IMG/VR virus record: IMGVR_UViG_2531839239_000027
Reading direction: 5' to 3' (one strand)
Length of the DNA: 8,256 nt
From: a virus
Taxonomy: Duplodnaviria > Heunggongvirae > Uroviricota > Caudoviricetes
Of the stretch, positions 1,739 through 8,256 are shown one piece after another. Under the pieces are notes generated by a model, which made no database searches, was not told where the DNA came from, and worked only from the letters and a program-made list of their open reading frames with translations. How positions within the stretch are numbered: the stretch's first letter is position 1; each line of letters begins with the position of its first letter. A program made the translations under genes and the position numbers.

Positions 1739-1945
1739 ATGGAAGCAATCAAAAAAGTCATCTTTCGCCAGGAAGTAAAAAAACTTATCCATATTAAGGC
1801 AGACAGCACGCTGCAAAGCATGATCAACGCCGGAGAATTCCCGCAGGGTTTTCGTGTCGGTTTGCGCCGTCGCGGATGGTATGAGGAAGACGTAATCGCA
1901 TGGATGAAAGAACGCGAACAAGAAGCGCGCGGAACGACCGCTTAA
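1739..1945 (+). CDS. alpA: AlpA-family phage regulatory protein (excisionase/activator-like DNA-binding protein)
   Basis: 68-aa ORF; motif ...SMINAGEFPQGFRVGLRRRGWYEEDVIAWMKERE matches the AlpA-family pattern (FP.G.r.G.r..gW.e.dv..W). GAGG 10 nt upstream of the ATG. Position just after int is typical of P4-like and PICI elements. Confidence 0.85.
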   Translation: MEAIKKVIFRQEVKKLIHIKADSTLQSMINAGEFPQGFRVGLRRRGWYEEDVIAWMKEREQEARGTTA

Positions 1946-1970
1946 CATATATAGGGCAAATGATGAACAT

Positions 1971-1998
1971 AAAAAAAGCGGCCCCGAAATGGAGCCAC
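1971..1998 (-). terminator. Rho-independent terminator for minus-strand transcription
   Basis: Read on the minus strand: GUGGCUCC-AUUUC-GGGGCCGC (8-bp stem including two G-U pairs, 5-nt loop) followed by U7 (plus-strand A-run 1971-1977). Would stop transcripts from the RHH gene before they run antisense into alpA. Confidence 0.55.
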
Positions 1999-2066
1999 CT
2001 TTCTGAACAATTAACCCGCTGCGCCGTATGTGTCAACAATCATAAGCCTGGGCATGATAACCGCGA

Positions 2067-2270
2067 TCAGGCTGGTGGGCAATTATCTTGCTTGTTGGGG
2101 CCGTATTGTGCTGCCATTTTCATCCGTTCAGAACGTGAATATTTTTTTAGAAACTCATCAAGGACAAAAGCGCATGGTGCGAATCTTTCTGATTCATGCT
2201 CGAGCGCCATATTTTCGTGCTCTCTGTTCGTTTTTTGCGATGGTGTATTGGTTGATTCTTTATTGGTCAT
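2067..2270 (-). CDS. Hypothetical small protein (67 aa; alternative internal ATG at 2210 gives 47 aa); doubtful
   Basis: Only minus-strand ORF between the RHH gene stop (2328) and the minus-strand terminator (1971-1998), so it lies inside that transcript. Weak Shine-Dalgarno, lower-GC region, no recognisable motifs. Could be non-coding. Confidence 0.25.
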   Translation of the reverse strand: MTNKESTNTPSQKTNREHENMALEHESERFAPCAFVLDEFLKKYSRSERMKMAAQYGPNKQDNCPPA

Positions 2271-2327
2271 TGTGTGTACCTGTAAAGCAATGCGCCGTAG
2301 TACCTCACACCACGGCGCTGATAGTGA

Positions 2328-2633
2328 TTATTCTGATTCTTTGGCCTTGCGGCGCTGGAGTTCTTCACGTGCGACAGTGACGAGCTGCCCGATCTCCTCG
2401 GCGGCTTTGATTCCGAGTTTTTCCACCTGCGCCAGTGCATTGAGCGAAGAAATCAGGAGGTTTTCTCCGCTTCCTTCTGCCTGGCGGCGGGCGATTTCAC
2501 CGCGCATGGCGGTTACTATGAATCCGGCGTTGCTTTCACCGTCCAGTTTTACGGATTCCATGCCTTCAATAACATCATGCGGGATCCGAGCTGTCAGTGA
2601 TTGTGATTTTGCGTTTTTTGAACCTGTAGCCAT
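2328..2633 (-). CDS. Ribbon-helix-helix (Arc/CopG/MetJ-like) DNA-binding protein with C-terminal helical extension; putative repressor
   Basis: ORF-track frame 2328..2648 begins at TTG; the ATG at 2633-2631 with GAGAGG Shine-Dalgarno is the likelier start (101 aa). N-terminus KSQSLTARIPHDVIEGMESVKLDGESNAGFIVTAMRGEIARR has the beta-strand/helix/helix layout of RHH regulators. Divergent from the Icd-like-to-rep operon across an operator-rich region. Confidence 0.6.
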   Translation of the reverse strand: MATGSKNAKSQSLTARIPHDVIEGMESVKLDGESNAGFIVTAMRGEIARRQAEGSGENLLISSLNALAQVEKLGIKAAEEIGQLVTVAREELQRRKAKESE

Positions 2634-2654
2634 CTGTAATCCTCTCAATGAAAG

Positions 2655-2749
2655 TGTAAGACAATATACACATAAAAAGTCTTACATAAAAGCATTGACA
2701 TGTAAGCCACCTATAAATAAAGTTACTTACACCTTGTTAATGCAAGGTG
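2655..2749. promoter_or_regulatory. Divergent promoter/operator region: two TGTAAG...CTTACA palindromes, a sigma70-like promoter and a leader inverted repeat
   Basis: IR1 TGTAAGAC-N16-GTCTTACA (2655-2686). -35 TTGACA (2695-2700), 17-bp spacer, -10 TAAAGT (2718-2723), pointing rightward. IR2 TGTAAG-N19-CTTACA (2701-2731) overlaps the spacer and -10. IR3 CACCTTG-N6-CAAGGTG (2730-2749) sits at the predicted start site. A TATATT hexamer on the minus strand within IR1 could be the -10 for the RHH gene. Confidence 0.55.
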
Positions 2750-2829
2750 CAGAAACGACGAAACCCCGCACTGTAGGAGCAGTAACGGGGCTTCTAACCA
2801 CCAACGATAACGAGAGTATCGAGGTAGCT

Positions 2830-3030
2830 ATGAGAAATCATACCACACACCCGCAAGGGCGGGACTCGCACAACCTGAATAAATACATTTGGCGTTTTAT
2901 CGCCCTGAGCACTGCACAACCGCGCGTGATTACCATTGAGGCCACCAGCGAACAGGAAGCACGCCTGCAATCCCCGGCTGGCTGCGTGATGGTATTCGCT
3001 GCCCGTATTCGTCAGGGGGTAGGCTTATGA
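2830..3030 (+). CDS. Small protein resembling host cell-division inhibitor Icd-like proteins of P1/P4-type prophages
   Basis: 66 codons, the C-terminal part of the spurious long ORF 1900..3030. GAGG at 2821-2824, 5 nt before the ATG. Motif YIWRFIALS...TSEQEARLQ...VMVFAARIRQG matches my recollection of the Icd-like pattern (rF.f.a....A..E.aR...lAR.fvL.FAGR); from memory, not searched. Stop overlaps the next start (ATGA at 3027-3030). Confidence 0.45.
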   Translation: MRNHTTHPQGRDSHNLNKYIWRFIALSTAQPRVITIEATSEQEARLQSPAGCVMVFAARIRQGVGL

Positions 3031-3689
3031 GCCAGGAAATCACACTACAACAGGCAGCAGAACGCGCCCACCAAATCGAAGTTATTTGCGCACTGGCAGA
3101 GGATTACCCAAGCATGATGACCGACAGAGAATCAGGGGCAATCATCAGCTTACTTAAACGCCTTAGCGGTGAGGTCTGCGTATTCCTGATCGATGAACAG
3201 GAAAGAAGAACGCTTATTTCTAACGAAAAAAATGCGGAGGGGTACATGTGCAATAAAACCACACCGGACGCAGCCGCCGCGCTCACTACGCTGATGCACG
3301 CACTTATTGATATTGAATGCACGGCAGAGCTTGCGCAGGGAGAAGAACAGAAAGACCGGACACAGTTCGCCCTGGAATGTATCCGATACATCGCAACGCG
3401 GTCGCTGAATGACGCTAAAAATATTCTTGTTGCTGATTGTGAAAATGGGGGGGTTATGCGTGATGATCGTTTTAATTCCCTGAAACAAGAATTTTCCGGC
3501 GTTCCTGATGATGCGGCTGATGCGCTTTCGTCAATGCCAGAACTTATTAGAGCGGCTTTTTTCTTACTTTCCACGAGAGAATATAAATCAACGGGACTTG
3601 ATGTACTGAATATCGCCGCCGATTATGCGGAATATGTGGCAGAGGCGCGTTACAGAAGAAAATTTCCTGAGGATGTAAGCCATGCGTGA
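3027..3689 (+). CDS. Hypothetical protein (220 aa, acidic, predicted helical); function unknown
   Basis: Start overlaps the Icd-like stop; 8-nt overlap with the next ORF (ATGCGTGA at 3682-3689). G-rich Shine-Dalgarno-like stretch upstream. No catalytic or nucleotide-binding motif recognised. Confidence 0.6.
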   Translation: MSQEITLQQAAERAHQIEVICALAEDYPSMMTDRESGAIISLLKRLSGEVCVFLIDEQERRTLISNEKNAEGYMCNKTTPDAAAALTTLMHALIDIECTAELAQGEEQKDRTQFALECIRYIATRSLNDAKNILVADCENGGVMRDDRFNSLKQEFSGVPDDAADALSSMPELIRAAFFLLSTREYKSTGLDVLNIAADYAEYVAEARYRRKFPEDVSHA

Positions 3690-3915
3690 TATTTATCTTG
3701 AAACAATAGACCGCGCATCACTTGCACTTTCTCACAGTGAAAACATGATGGAAATATTGCGGATGTGCCTTGAATCCTTTGGCGATAATGAACGTAATGC
3801 AAAAAAAACGCGGATTATTACATCATTAATAACGCTTCTTGAGTCTGTAATAAATGAGTTGCAGGAAATAGAGACATTGCACGACAGATATAACGAACAG
3901 CACACCGGAGAATAA
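3682..3915 (+). CDS. Hypothetical protein (77 aa)
   Basis: GAGGA at 3668-3672 upstream of the ATG; start overlaps the upstream gene. No recognisable motif. Confidence 0.5.
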   Translation: MRDIYLETIDRASLALSHSENMMEILRMCLESFGDNERNAKKTRIITSLITLLESVINELQEIETLHDRYNEQHTGE

Positions 3916-3920
3916 AAATA

Positions 3921-4220
3921 ATGAAACTTAAATATTCTGGCTTAACTGCCAGTGGCAACACTCACCCTAAATTTACGCGCGGTGATATTTACCGCGACCA
4001 GTACGGCGGCACGGTAATGATTAAGGGCGTGGCGGGACGGTGCGTAACTTACCGCCGTGAAGGTTACGAATATGATTGCGTGATGCCTGTTTATCAGTTC
4101 CGGCGTGATTTTTCTCTGGTACAGACCGCGCCGCATAACGTGCCCACCAGCAACGCCAGGGCACGGGCAAACATCCAGAAGCTGAAAACCATGATTAACG
4201 GATTCAGGGGCAAGAAATGA
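3921..4220 (+). CDS. Hypothetical protein (99 aa, basic, Gly/Tyr/Arg-rich)
   Basis: GGAG at 3906-3909; stop overlaps the rep start (ATGA at 4217-4220). No recognisable motif. Confidence 0.5.
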   Translation: MKLKYSGLTASGNTHPKFTRGDIYRDQYGGTVMIKGVAGRCVTYRREGYEYDCVMPVYQFRRDFSLVQTAPHNVPTSNARARANIQKLKTMINGFRGKK

Positions 4221-5617
4221 AAAGCGCACCGAACTTAAAAAAACAGCCTTACGACAAGATGACCGAAGTCATCATTTTTGCGGGTAGTGATGCGTGGGCA
4301 CATGCGAAACAGTGGCAGGAACAGGACGGGCGACTGGCTGGCGATAATGTGCCTCCCGTTGTGCTGGCTGATGATCAACTGGATGAACTGGCAGACCTGA
4401 GAATCATCGACGAGGGGCGCTATTGTGTCCGGCTGTACAAGGCAGGCCACATCAGGCCATCAAATATTAATGCCATTGCGCACAAGCTGGCGGCGGCGGG
4501 TGTAACTGATGCGAATTATTACCCCGAAGGGATGCACAGCCAGAAGCGGGAGAACTGGCGCGAATATCTGGAACGGGAGCGGGGGAAAAAGCCAGGGGAA
4601 GAAAAACACCACCAGCGAAAAACCACGCTACCAATGAGCGTGGGATCTGCCGGATACGACACACAACTTGATTACGTGGTTAAGGGGATTATTCCGGCGG
4701 TATCGCTGTGCAGCATATACGGGGCGAGCGGTTCATATAAATCGTTCCTTGCGGGTTCGTGGGCGTGTCACGTTTCCACGGGCCGCCAGTGGGGAGGCCG
4801 CAGGGTGGCGCATGGCGCTGTTCTCTATGTGGTTGGTGAAGGCGGTATCGGCGTTCCGCGTCGTGTAAAAGCCTGGGAGGTTGTGCACGGTGAGCAGGTG
4901 AAAAATCTGTATCTGGTAAACCGTCCCATCTTTCCGGCTGCCCCGCTTGATGTTGAGGAAATGGTTATCGCTGCCCGTCAGGTGGAACGGGAAACGGGTA
5001 AACCGGTTCGAATGATTATTCTGGATACGCTGGCGCGCTGCTTTGGCGGCAATGATGAAAATGATTCCCGTGATATGGGGGCGTTTATCCGTGGGTGTGA
5101 CGAACTGAAACGGCGCACAGGGGCAACGGTGCTGGTGGTTCACCATTCCGGCAAGGATGAAACAAAGGGGGCGCGTGGTTCCAGTGCATTTCGTGCATCA
5201 CTGGACGCCGAATACCGGATACGCAGGGAGGACGCAGGCAGCGAAGCGCTGGTTATCTCATGTACCAAAATGAAGGACGCGGAGGAACTCAAAGAAGCAG
5301 CATATGACTTACGCGTGGTGGAGCTTTTTACCGACGCTGACGGGGAGTTAATCACGTCGCTGGTGGTGGTGGATAAGCCGCGCCCTCCCGTTGAACTGGA
5401 GCGCATCGAGGAGGCAGGGAACAAGACGGAGAATCACGCCGCGCTATGGCAGTGCATCAGAACACGAACAGCACACGGGGAGGCGTGCACTATCGCCCTT
5501 CTCCGCGACGATATGAAAAAGCTGGGGTATGAGATGAAGCACTTCCGGCGCTGGCTGTACAAGCTGGAAAATGATGGCGTAATCGTTATTGACGGTGATG
5601 ACGTGCGCCCGCTGTAA
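4217..5617 (+). CDS. rep: Replication protein: RepA/DnaB-like RecA-fold ATPase (AAA_25-type helicase) with an N-terminal domain of unknown function
   Basis: 466 aa. P-loop region YGASGSYKS, Walker B-like MIILDTLARCF, and LVVHHSGKDETKGARGSSAF matching the RepA-family sensor pattern (vhH.gK....RGssa). Followed immediately by an iteron array. AGGGG Shine-Dalgarno at 4204-4209. Confidence 0.8.
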   Translation: MKSAPNLKKQPYDKMTEVIIFAGSDAWAHAKQWQEQDGRLAGDNVPPVVLADDQLDELADLRIIDEGRYCVRLYKAGHIRPSNINAIAHKLAAAGVTDANYYPEGMHSQKRENWREYLERERGKKPGEEKHHQRKTTLPMSVGSAGYDTQLDYVVKGIIPAVSLCSIYGASGSYKSFLAGSWACHVSTGRQWGGRRVAHGAVLYVVGEGGIGVPRRVKAWEVVHGEQVKNLYLVNRPIFPAAPLDVEEMVIAARQVERETGKPVRMIILDTLARCFGGNDENDSRDMGAFIRGCDELKRRTGATVLVVHHSGKDETKGARGSSAFRASLDAEYRIRREDAGSEALVISCTKMKDAEELKEAAYDLRVVELFTDADGELITSLVVVDKPRPPVELERIEEAGNKTENHAALWQCIRTRTAHGEACTIALLRDDMKKLGYEMKHFRRWLYKLENDGVIVIDGDDVRPL

Positions 5618-5819
5618 AAAGTGGGGAGTAAAAGTGGGGGGAGTGGGGAATTTAACAAAATTGAAACATAATTACCCACTTTCCCACCTGTATATACCCA
5701 AAAAAGTGGGGAGTAAAAAACATATTGAAAAACATAACGTTAGAATCACAAAAAAAAGAGGTGGGGAGACGGTGGGTAATTTCAAAAAGTGGGGAGCAAA
5801 AGTGGGGAGTAGTGGGGAA
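5618..5819. repeat. Iteron array flanking an AT-rich core; putative origin of replication
   Basis: At least 9 direct copies of GTGGGGAG/GTGGGGAA/GTGGGTA at approximately 5621, 5634, 5643, 5706, 5761, 5772, 5789, 5802 and 5812. Inverted copies at 5674-5689 (ACCCACTTTCCCACC). A-rich core 5651-5756 with repeated ATTGAAA(AA)CATAA at about 5659 and 5724. Confidence 0.7.
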
Positions 5820-6064
5820 TGAACAGAAAAACCAGAGATAAGACAGCGCCAAAATATAAAGCGTTAGACATGACAGAGCTTTCCTTAAAGGTGGCAATCA
5901 GAACGATAGACCGCCACGCGGGGGAAGGATACGCGAAGGAGCATCCCGAACTGATAAGCGCATTCATGACCACAGCGGCGGCAAACTTTGCCACGCTGAC
6001 AGAACGGGAGATTGCCGAAGCGGAACAGGTAACAACCATCAACGTTAAAAGCGCTGGAGAATAA
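5819..6064 (+). CDS. Hypothetical protein (81 aa; alternative start at ATG 5870 gives 64 aa)
   Basis: ORF begins inside the last iteron and ends 19 nt before a strong terminator. GGGGAG 9 nt upstream of the 5819 ATG. No recognised motif. Confidence 0.4.
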   Translation: MNRKTRDKTAPKYKALDMTELSLKVAIRTIDRHAGEGYAKEHPELISAFMTTAAANFATLTEREIAEAEQVTTINVKSAGE

Positions 6065-6554: not shown

Positions 6555-6640
6555 CAGGGGGGGAGTGTTCCGGCCGGAAAGTCGATCGCCCTGGACACCG
6601 CCCCCAGTCTCATTCATAGAAAATTTTGCTTTTCAAAAAA

Positions 6641-6681: not shown

Positions 6682-7170
6682 ATGGCATTAACGACCAAAA
6701 AAAAGCGGTTTGCTGATGCGTTATCAAAGGGCACAAATCCAACGGAAGCCGCGATACATGCGGGATACAGCGAAAAGACTGCAAGGGTTAAAGGCTGGCA
6801 GCTATCCAATGATCCGGAGGTGAAAAAGTATCTTAAGGCTGTAACTTCTGATGTAACTTTTCAGGTTACAAAACCGAAAAAAGTTACAAAGAAAGTTACC
6901 GAAAAAGTTACACCGGAACGGGCATCAATTAACACCATTGAGATGATGGATAACGGCCTACCCGACCCCATCAAAGCAATGGGCAGGATACTGATTGACA
7001 ACATGGACACAGATCCAAAACTGGCTTTAGATGCCGCGTTTAAGCTGGCCCAGTTCACCCACCGCAAGATCGGCAGCATTGGGAAAAAAGAGGTTAAAAA
7101 ACTCAATGCCGCTAATGTCTCCTCAAATCGGTTCCCCATCCCTAAGCCACCAACTGGCTTAAAACACTGA
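6682..7170 (+). CDS. terS: Phage terminase small subunit (Terminase_2/P27-like N-terminal HTH)
   Basis: N-terminus MALTTKKKRFADALSKGTNPTEAAIHAGYSEKTARVKGWQLSNDPEVKKYL matches the TerS pattern (KQ.lF...Y...GNaT.AAi.AGYS.KTA...G..Ll.n..V..yi). ORF-track frame opens at 6544, but the ATG at 6682 with GAGG at 6671-6674 is the likely start. 162 aa from that start. Confidence 0.75.
   Translation: MALTTKKKRFADALSKGTNPTEAAIHAGYSEKTARVKGWQLSNDPEVKKYLKAVTSDVTFQVTKPKKVTKKVTEKVTPERASINTIEMMDNGLPDPIKAMGRILIDNMDTDPKLALDAAFKLAQFTHRKIGSIGKKEVKKLNAANVSSNRFPIPKPPTGLKH
6841..6914 (+). repeat. 12-bp-periodic array of GTTAC/GTAAC pentamers inside terS
   Basis: GTAAC at 6841 and 6853; GTTACA at 6865; GTTACA at 6883; GTTACC at 6895; GTTACACC at 6907. 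Spacings of 12 bp except one 18-bp gap. Encodes the low-complexity stretch VTSDVTFQVTKPKKVTKKVTEKVT. Confidence 0.55.
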
Positions 7171-7181
7171 GGTAGCGAACT

Positions 7182-7343
7182 ATGAGCGAATACATCACAG
7201 ACCCTATTGATGTACTCACGGAAATCATGAACGACAAGCAGCAGCCAACCGAAATACGGTTACAGGCTGCCGCTGTTCTGATGCCATATTTTCACGAAAC
7301 CCTAACCCCATGTTACCAGGAGGAAGAAGATAATGATTTCTAA
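7182..7343 (+). CDS. Hypothetical small protein (53 aa); not in the supplied ORF track
   Basis: Hand translation: MSEYITDPIDVLTEIMNDKQQPTEIRLQAAAVLMPYFHETLTPCYQEEEDNDF. GAGG at 7169-7172; begins 11 nt after the terS stop and overlaps the next start by 11 nt. Confidence 0.4.
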   Translation: MSEYITDPIDVLTEIMNDKQQPTEIRLQAAAVLMPYFHETLTPCYQEEEDNDF

Positions 7344-8256
7344 AAACATGAAAGGCGTGTCGGCAGTTCGCGCCGCCAGCGTGCTTACATCGTGTAAATT
7401 CAGCCATGCAGACGCAATTGAAATGACGAAAAAAAATGATCCGGCAGTATCGAAATTTCTTGAAAAATCCATTGTTGCCGGAATGACTACGGATAATATG
7501 CCGTCGCTGGTGGCAGAGCCGATAGTAAGAGAGCTTGGCGAGTATATTTTTTCGCAGTCTGTACCAGGCAAGCTAATCAGCAGCGCGCTGAATCTTCCGT
7601 TTGGCGCAAAATTGCAGTCAATATCAGGCAAGGGTAGTAAATGGCTTAAAGAAGCCGAAGAAATCCCTGTCAAAGAGGGAGAAGTAAACGAAAGTGCGCT
7701 AAAACTGTGCAAACTTGGCGCTATTGTGATGCTGAATAACGAGCTAATCAAATTTAGCACCCCTGGTACCAATTCAGCGATCAGAGACTTGATCACATCG
7801 GAATCGGTGAAAGAAATAGATAAAAAATTTCTTTCCAGTGACCAGGAGGTGGCGGGCGTATCCCCTGAGGGCGTGCTTAATGGTGCTGATGAGGCCGAAA
7901 ACTTCATAGAGCTTTTCAAAAAGCACATAGCGAACGGTAACACGCTTGCCACGTCGTCGCTAATCTTGCCCGTAGAAAACGCCTTACAGCTTACTGATGC
8001 TGAGTTCTGGCAGATAGAGCTTTTGAGAATACCGGTAATTGTGAGCGAACAGGCGGATCGCATGATGCTGATAGACGCTCAAAAGCTGATTATTAACGTT
8101 GAAGCCACGGTTATAACCCCAACTGATGAGGCGGTAATAAAAACCGAATCAGGGACGGTTAGCCTTTTCCAGAATGACGCTACAGCGTTCAGGGCAATCA
8201 CCTATTGCGGATGGCAAAAACTCGATAAGGCCGTCACCGTTCTGGCGAAAAGCTGA
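7333..8256 (+). CDS. HK97-fold phage major capsid protein-like (no N-terminal scaffold/delta domain)
   Basis: 307 aa, complete (stop at 8254-8256). GGAGG at 7318-7322. Segments SPEGVLNGADEAENF and ATSSLILPVENALQLTDAEF line up by eye with the HK97 gp5 segments EGQLLNGDGTGDNLEGL and ASGIVLNPRDWHNIALLKD. Alignment is from memory and unverified. Confidence 0.6.
   Translation: MISKNMKGVSAVRAASVLTSCKFSHADAIEMTKKNDPAVSKFLEKSIVAGMTTDNMPSLVAEPIVRELGEYIFSQSVPGKLISSALNLPFGAKLQSISGKGSKWLKEAEEIPVKEGEVNESALKLCKLGAIVMLNNELIKFSTPGTNSAIRDLITSESVKEIDKKFLSSDQEVAGVSPEGVLNGADEAENFIELFKKHIANGNTLATSSLILPVENALQLTDAEFWQIELLRIPVIVSEQADRMMLIDAQKLIINVEATVITPTDEAVIKTESGTVSLFQNDATAFRAITYCGWQKLDKAVTVLAKS

Follow-up and report, generated by a model that had tools for sequence, protein, structure and literature searches.

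A chain of five small gene cassettes, ending in an RgdR orthologue, precedes the replicase of a phage-inducible chromosomal island from Escherichia coli

We analyzed the interval 3027-4220 of an 8,256-nucleotide stretch of viral DNA (IMG/VR record IMGVR_UViG_2531839239_000027; the whole stretch is referred to here as the window). The window is an 8.3-kb phage-inducible chromosomal island (PICI) from Escherichia coli, and the interval is the middle of its early operon. We found that this interval does not hold one three-gene module but strings together five small cassettes, named here A, B-N, B-C, C, and D. A preliminary description of this DNA had reported open reading frames (ORFs) of 220, 77, and 99 amino acids on the plus strand at 3027-3689 (ORF1), 3682-3915 (ORF2), and 3921-4220 (ORF3), followed by a helicase gene starting at 4217, and these coordinates and junctions proved exact. 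Our data indicate that ORF1 is a composite of A, B-N, and B-C in a single frame, that ORF2 is cassette C, an acidic protein of 77 amino acids (phrog_2196, E = 1e-30), and that ORF3 is cassette D, an orthologue of the regulator RgdR. The explanation that we favor, and consider reasonably probable, is that the middle of this early operon holds five reassorting cassettes, in which D is RgdR acting as a cofactor, the acidic cassettes are dispensable, and ORF1 is a fusion made by slippage whose fused and split forms are both tolerated. What we describe is anatomy, homology, conservation, and run-length polymorphism; functional roles are inferred from these, with the exception of the published phenotypes of RgdR.

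Gene content and junctions of the interval

The genes of the interval follow each other closely. The stop codon of an upstream Icd-like gene overlaps the start of ORF1 in ATGA at 3027-3030, the junction between ORF1 and ORF2 (that is, between B-C and C) is ATGCGTGA at 3682-3689, a gap of 5 nucleotides separates ORF2 from ORF3 (between 3915 and 3921), and the stop of ORF3 overlaps the start of the replicase in ATGA at 4217-4220. These junctions support the earlier account of tightly packed genes in an early operon upstream of a satellite replication protein, and the chain is probably translationally coupled, as had been proposed. The five cassettes between the Icd-like gene and the replicase would be read as one translationally coupled string while reassorting independently. 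We compared the cassettes across two samples, one of 83 loci and a D-anchored set of 65 loci. The ORFs are real genes under purifying selection and not chance frames, since each cassette recurs in dozens of related loci (22-83) with a median pairwise ratio of nonsynonymous to synonymous substitution rates (dN/dS) of 0.27-0.40.

Composite structure of ORF1

The preliminary description had counted three genes, taking the 220-amino-acid ORF as one of them. This count does not stand, as ORF1 matches two PHROG families and corresponds to two or three separate genes in most relatives. The first family, phrog_1478 (a 63-amino-acid profile), aligns at amino acids 2-62, and the second, phrog_2512 (a 154-amino-acid profile), extends from M74 to the end (amino acids 74-220). 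The exact 220-amino-acid form is rare and was found in two single-contig database entries. Cassette A (amino acids 1-73; 3027-3245, plus strand) is acidic, with an isoelectric point (pI) of 4.58, and is the part that matches phrog_1478 (E = 2.6e-27). In most carriers, cassette A is its own gene of 76 amino acids, with a TAA 11 nucleotides inside B (for example, at locus L003). In the window, A is joined in frame with B because one A is missing from the run at 3226-3232 (plus strand), which is A7 here and A8 in relatives; among 20 unique contexts of this run, 16 contained A8 and 4 contained A7.

Cassette B-N (amino acids 74-143; 3246-3455, plus strand) begins at M74, where the match to phrog_2512 also begins, and this codon is preceded by GGAGGGG. 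Most database homologues of B are 144-155 amino acids long and start at the position of M74, and B-N is a stand-alone protein of 70-93 amino acids in many relatives. Cassette B-C (amino acids 144-220; 3456-3689, plus strand) has its own ATG 2 nucleotides past a run of G residues and is covered by phrog_24341 over amino acids 144-220. In frameshifted relatives B-C is called as a separate gene of 77 amino acids by the Prokaryotic Genome Annotation Pipeline (PGAP), as at locus L001. Furthermore, B-N (74 amino acids) and B-C are distinct genes in loci L057-L064, with an ORF of 127 amino acids between them, and a profile of B searched against 1.84 billion representative proteins gave only 56 matches, which cover either profile positions 1-71 or positions 72-144. 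The intervening 127-amino-acid ORF (MCRRCTMHNLSISDLNSIQFDEK...) lies at 2759-3142 of L058 and is also present in L057 and L059-L064.

We read ORF1 as a composite because of its two PHROG families, the start of most homologues at M74, the A8 run of relatives, and the separation of B-N and B-C in L057-L064; on this evidence it is a lineage-specific fusion of three cassettes. The fusion arises from a poly-A run that is one base short (A7) together with a poly-G length that keeps the frame (G7). Other fusions were found among related proteins. In P0394, a protein of 135 amino acids from the representative library, the Icd-like protein continues in frame into B-N. P0376, a database protein with no Pfam match, is the 127-amino-acid ORF fused to B-C. 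Single-base changes at overlapping stop and start codons therefore repeatedly join neighboring cassettes. Larger proteins that contain B were set aside: P0410 (a repeat protein) and P0411 (1531 amino acids, matched in 8 stretches) look spurious, and P0367, which has no Pfam domain and stays open all the way from Icd-like sequence to B-C, seems to have been called by read-through. We also rejected paralogy among the cassettes, which was suggested by the MRD start and 77-amino-acid length shared by B-C and C and by a likeness of A to B-N by eye, as BLASTP returned no alignment and all hhalign probabilities were 1.3% or lower.

Length variation of the poly-G run

The hinge between B-N and B-C is a hypervariable G run, which is G7 in the window (3447-3453, plus strand) and is followed by TT and then by the start codon of B-C. 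Among 62 unique contexts, the run was G4 in 1, G7 in 18, G8 in 22, G9 in 16, G10 in 4, and G11 in 1, and approximately 60% of contexts are out of frame at the run. The two halves are fused in G7 and G10. With G8, B-N ends at a TGA that overlaps the ATG of B-C (ATGCGTGA), the same arrangement as at the junction of B and C, while G9 gives B-N a tail of 12 codons. A protein of 221 amino acids found on 52 contigs corresponds to G10. We found lengths G7 to G10 on a background that is at least 99.8% identical, and in at least 9 groups of local haplotypes the run occurs in several lengths within the group. Complete RefSeq genomes cover the same range of lengths, and their annotation switches between one and two genes accordingly. 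G8 is present in strain 2013C-4538 and five others, G9 in at least 18 assemblies of the O111 lineage (including the 2009 reference 11128), and independent assemblies of ATCC 25922 agree on G8. Since the lengths are consistent within ATCC 25922 and the O111 lineage, they are heritable and not simply read errors, and we argue from this consistency that most of the polymorphism is real. Out-of-frame alleles retain an intact B-N in 36 of 36 cases and an intact B-C in 33 of 36.

The simplest reading of these data is that slippage is frequent at the G run and that its products are tolerated since both halves can be translated separately. Fused and split forms would both be tolerated because B-C retains a start codon of its own immediately behind the run, and on this reading the run itself is probably a Shine-Dalgarno-like element of B-C. 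We also considered whether the run is an adaptive contingency (phase-variation) switch, kept by selection, that toggles B between a fused form and a split or truncated form and so alters the interaction of the satellite with helper phage or host. Like the contingency loci of Neisseria, Haemophilus, Campylobacter, and Bordetella, the hinge combines a coding G run of at least 7 with frame-changing length alleles among near-identical strains, here G7 to G11 on shared haplotypes. The run is uninterrupted in 61 of the 62 unique contexts despite B-N protein divergence of up to 61%, and approximately 14 nucleotides before it and 23 nucleotides after it are near invariant across haplotype groups. The four lengths on one nearly identical background and the clean stop/start overlap produced by G8 would also fit a switch. 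However, the hinge differs from those loci in that it joins two separately translatable halves, so that it would alternate between fused and split and not clearly between on and off; it is located in an E. coli phage satellite. The lengths seem fixed in clonal lineages (O111 and ATCC 25922), so switching would not be very fast, the conserved flanks are explicable by recent recombination spreading one B-C allele, and the run could be retained as the ribosome-binding site of B-C. Moreover, the proposed switch has no known phenotype, and phase variation through simple repeats is not common in E. coli. We consider a selected switch unlikely and prefer the slippage hotspot with tolerated outcomes.

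ORF3 as an RgdR orthologue

The preliminary description had found no assignable motif in any of the three ORFs and had proposed profile searches. The absence of a motif holds for ORF1 and ORF2: Pfam, NCBIfam, PADLOC, and PDB sequence searches gave no homologue of known function for either, and the PHROG families that they match all lack an assigned function. It does not hold for ORF3. Cassette D (3921-4220, plus strand) matches the Pfam family PF13973 (DUF4222) with 82.1 bits (cut-off 27; E = 2.1e-23) over profile positions 1-53 of 53. It is 99 amino acids long and has a pI of 10.17 and an arginine-glycine-aspartate (RGD) motif at R20-G21-D22, and its core residues 20-68 are near invariant across 30 homologues. 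RgdR is ECs1581, a basic 99-amino-acid protein that has RGD at residues 20-22, encoded in O-island 51 (OI-51, CP-933C) of O157:H7 (Flockhart et al. 2012, PMC3378721). It has been reported to activate both the LEE1 promoter and type III secretion, to repress motility, to raise Congo-red binding, and to bind DNA without sequence specificity; these phenotypes are published for ECs1581 and CFT073 C1493 only, and an orthologue from O111:H- is listed in the same study (PMC3378721). RgdR is encoded by all analyzed E. coli PICIs (PMC6092414). The proposal that the three ORFs form an undescribed module fails at this point, since ORF3 belongs to a family that has already been studied and found throughout these islands.

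To place the window protein relative to ECs1581, we used the D protein of locus L005 (O157:H7, pepT-roxA site), which has D10, R20, Q27, K35, H45, and R61, the six residues that distinguish ECs1581 from ECED1_1787 of strain ED1a. The D protein of the window is 78% identical to that of L005 over residues 1-99 and occupies the same gene position, and by this comparison it is an orthologue of RgdR. It has in common with ECs1581 its length, basic pI, RGD at 20-22, Q27, K35, R61, and the DUF4222 domain, as well as a location at the end of a small-gene chain directly before a PICI replicase. It differs in having A10 and R45 where ECs1581 has D10 and H45, position 10 being as in the CFT073 and ED1a variants, and in that the downstream replicase is a RepA-type helicase in the window and of the DUF927 type at OI-51. 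The activity of the window allele on LEE1 and motility is predicted from ECs1581 only. An AlphaFold2 model of D suggests a small SH3/Tudor/KOW-like beta-barrel with a basic C-terminal helix. Increased locus of enterocyte effacement (LEE) expression, decreased motility, and increased Congo-red binding under RgdR resemble what a loss of H-NS silencing would be expected to produce. A scan of species-representative genomes for D, with search patterns too strict to gauge its breadth, returned 2 loci, in Shigella flexneri and Escherichia albertii.

Coupling of cassette D to the replicase

The replicase gene (4217-5617, plus strand) encodes a RepA-type helicase of 466 amino acids with an AAA_25 domain at amino acids 147-315. 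We found that D is the only constant cassette of the chain and that its stop codon always lies over the replicase start: wherever the data are complete (79 loci), the two genes overlap in ATGA. This overlap is maintained across three types of replicase, namely RepA (52 loci), the D5_N/DUF5906/Pox_D5 "P4 primase family" (26 loci), and DUF927 (1 locus). The first approximately 125 amino acids of the replicase (4217-4591) are common to all three types, with 63-70% identity. This N-terminal domain is not recognized by Pfam and gives a partial match to the PHROG "DNA primase" family phrog_864 (E = 1.5e-14); as the preliminary description had stated, the window contains no recognizable primase, in that no Pfam-recognizable primase domain was found. 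The recombination boundary between replicase types falls after this domain. The invariant coupling of D and replicase suggests that D has a role in the island itself and is not pure cargo. D would be co-translated with the replicase and serve as a general DNA- or transcription-associated cofactor of the induced island, and its effects on host virulence genes would be a by-product.

We further considered whether the cassettes, or at least D, are accessory factors of the downstream replicase, in the manner of P4 Cnr, which modulates DNA binding by alpha. The overlap at all 79 loci, the N-terminal domain that three replicase types share right after D, and the DNA binding of RgdR (PMC3378721) are consistent with such a function, and P4 cnr (ORF106), like D, is a small gene immediately upstream of a satellite replication initiator. 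However, Cnr is not basic, its composition is very different, and it has no sequence or profile similarity to D (hhalign probability 0.1%, 1 aligned column), which led us to reject homology between the two; cnr and alpha also lie 14 nucleotides apart in P4 (ORF106 ends at 6984 and alpha starts at 6969), whereas D and the replicase overlap. A tblastn search of D against 50,697 phage records gave no P4 match and one weak protein match only. Alleles of D and of the replicase N-terminal domain do not co-vary (rho 0.13), and the rep gene and ori of EcCICFT073 were cloned and tested as a replicon alone (PMC6092414). Because of the missing homology to ORF106, the missing co-variation, and the EcCICFT073 replicon, we do not count D as an established replication factor. 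Many islands lack cassettes A, B, and C or carry them frameshifted, and together with the EcCICFT073 replicon this makes it unlikely that ORF1 or ORF2 is a required replication accessory factor, a role that had been raised before for one of the three ORFs. Overall, we find replicase accessory functions improbable. We give equally little credence to a joint reading in which the poly-G run at 3447-3453 is a selected slippage switch that hedges modes of helper or host interaction and RgdR and the replicase form a functional unit, with RgdR primarily a satellite replication or transcription cofactor. We retain the view of D as a general cofactor of the induced island.

Distribution and reassortment of the acidic cassettes

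Cassettes A, B-N, B-C, and C are all acidic (pI 4.5-4.8; C, 4.84). In the D-anchored set, the Icd-like gene is present upstream of D in 65 of 65 loci, B-N in 62, B-C and C in 59 each, and A in 20; among the 83 loci, C was found in 74 and A in 21. Some islands have only approximately 240 bp between the Icd-like gene and D, and OI-51 is without B and C. We next compared allele distances of adjacent cassettes, which are essentially uncorrelated (Spearman rho -0.04 to 0.29). The comparison of gene neighborhoods that the preliminary description had called for, to see whether its trio co-varies, therefore shows cassettes that often co-occur and alleles that reassort independently, and together with the lineage-specific fusion in ORF1 and the islands that lack A, B, or C it speaks against a coherent trio.

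We found 431 homologues of C; among the 120 listed, nearly all are 77 amino acids long and all source names are E. coli. Within C there is an A8 run at 3801-3808, and the C of locus L038 is split into two tblastn segments at approximately amino acids 40-42, consistent with a frameshift at or near this run. Searches of ORF1, ORF2, ORF3, and the replicase gave nothing significant in PDB sequence and profile searches and no match to PADLOC defense models at E <= 0.1. A likeness of ORF2 to Rop (E = 0.1-0.28 in PDB) was taken as noise from helical composition. We propose that A, B-N, B-C, and C may be dispensable accessory proteins that would act by binding helper-phage or host proteins, with replication not needing them; this is the weakest step of our explanation. 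That ORF1 and ORF2 are instead decaying, functionless remnants, with the frameshifts as ongoing pseudogenization, is in keeping with the share of alleles out of frame at the G run (approximately 60%), the PGAP flag of a frameshifted pseudogene on the O111 11128 copy, and the lack of homologues of known function, but we judge it very improbable given that median dN/dS in A, B-N, B-C, and C (0.27-0.40) is not above that of D or the Icd-like gene, that nearly every frameshifted allele still has both B halves open at their full length, that the listed C homologues keep their length, and that disruptions are concentrated at one run and not scattered.

The island and its other features

We identify the window as a PICI because it has an integrase gene (int), an alpA-like gene, a replicase with an iteron origin, a small terminase gene (terS), a capsid gene, and tRNA-Pro as a neighbor. 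It is bounded by int at the left (1-1242) and a capsid-like gene at the right (7333-8256), and E. coli O111 and strains related to it carry chromosomal copies that are 99.8-99.9% identical, inserted directly after tRNA-Pro between yejM and yejO. The features that define Gram-negative PICIs are all present: int, an alpA-type regulator, a replicase with a downstream iteron origin in the same orientation, a size within the range of 8-15 kb, and a specific att site. This assignment is made from genes, and helper induction, excision, and packaging would be expected from the class. Some form of the segment was matched in 1360 of 5426 complete E. coli genomes, its gene order recurring in more than 1300, and a phage genome collection gave no DNA match to the window.

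The AlpA/HTH_17-like gene (1739-1945) has a weak Pfam match (E = 0.003) and matches PHROG excisionase and regulator families (E = 1e-7). A divergent gene of the YlcI/YnfO family lies at 2328-2648 on the minus strand (YlcI_YnfO_N, E = 6e-20). Between it and the Icd-like gene is a sigma-70-like site, TTGACA-17-TAAAGT (2695-2723, plus strand), which agrees with the consensus at 10 of 12 positions, a match of consensus and not functional evidence; it is likely the start of the early operon. The Icd-like gene (2830-3030, plus strand), first of the chain, encodes a basic protein of 66 amino acids (NF033153 phage_ICD_like, E = 2.4e-19). We found no convincing terminator before the helicase gene, and this result and the promoter-like site make a single operon from the Icd-like gene through the helicase plausible. 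The operon leader (2740-2829) contains a GC-rich hairpin, CCCCG...CGGGG, at approximately 2763-2793, before the Icd-like start. The hairpin matches no Rfam family, and a scan of the operon leader and elsewhere for c4/IsrK-type or other RNAs gave best E values of 0.27 and 0.35, far under gathering scores. The PHROG Icd profile aligns from approximately nucleotide 2758, upstream of the annotated start, and there is an in-frame ATG at 2740. A 376-codon open frame (1900-3030, plus strand) shares the reading frame of the Icd-like gene and crosses the YlcI/YnfO gene in antisense, with its family match (Icd-like) confined to the last approximately 90 residues. We set it aside, as the remainder matches no family and is probably a chance frame; in relatives, PGAP calls "incomplete Icd-like" fragments around this region.

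In the replication origin (5615-5828, plus strand), AAAGTGGGGAG iterons form two sets, one on either side of an AT-rich stretch, a layout that agrees with the Gram-negative PICI origin (PMC6092414). The right end of the island (6682-8256 of the window; 13034-14608 of L001) carries the small terminase subunit, an ORF of 53 amino acids, and a capsid-like gene of 307 amino acids, followed by yejO. Sister islands have at this end a capsid and a decoration protein, or a capsid, a protease, and a portal, and the window island may be a reduced form here. A non-coding G7 run at 6557-6563, upstream of the small terminase gene, was G7 in 2 of 2 independent contexts, too few to judge variation. The window shares several features with EcCICFT073 and with the EDL933 island that forms capsids (Fillol-Salom et al. 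2018, PMC6092414): int, an alpA-like regulator, an early operon that runs in one direction and has a replicase as its last gene, an AT-rich core between two iteron sets, rgdR, packaging or capsid genes, and a size of approximately 8 kb. It differs from these islands in having a divergent YlcI/YnfO-type gene ahead of the operon and a right end with only terS and one capsid-like gene.

Discussion

Several points weigh against the explanation that we favor. The presence frequencies are skewed to near relatives, as the loci were retrieved via B or close D alleles. Some of the variation in homopolymer length may come from sequencing itself, as 454, PacBio, and Oxford Nanopore reads mis-call runs, and the intact halves of frameshifted alleles could merely reflect recent frameshifts. 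The AlphaFold2 model of ORF1 is all-helical with low confidence (a predicted local distance difference test score, pLDDT, of 39), which makes it unfit for fold comparison.

Part of what we describe was already known. ORF3 is a regulator recognized as a universal PICI gene, and ORF1 and ORF2 are conserved unknowns of narrow distribution that form no coherent novel module. Our literature search found no paper that treats cassette A, B, or C, and none that treats the G run. Two observations are apparently new: we found no report of the invariant overlap of rgdR with every replicase type and their common N-terminal domain, and none that describes an early gene fused or split by a G run of hypervariable length.

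RgdR has so far been treated as a cargo virulence regulator. Its constant overlap with the replicase start points to a core role in the satellite, a hypothesis that can be tested. Few unannotated genes of E. coli islands are commoner than the small acidic cassettes upstream. That these are modular, separable, and often fused or split by single-base slippage explains why annotation pipelines disagree on them, calling a pseudogene in some cases and one, two, or three genes in others. The 220-amino-acid ORF1 should accordingly not be read as a single protein. If the G run were a true selected switch, it would be an unusual example of phase variation by a simple repeat, located on a mobile element of E. 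coli.

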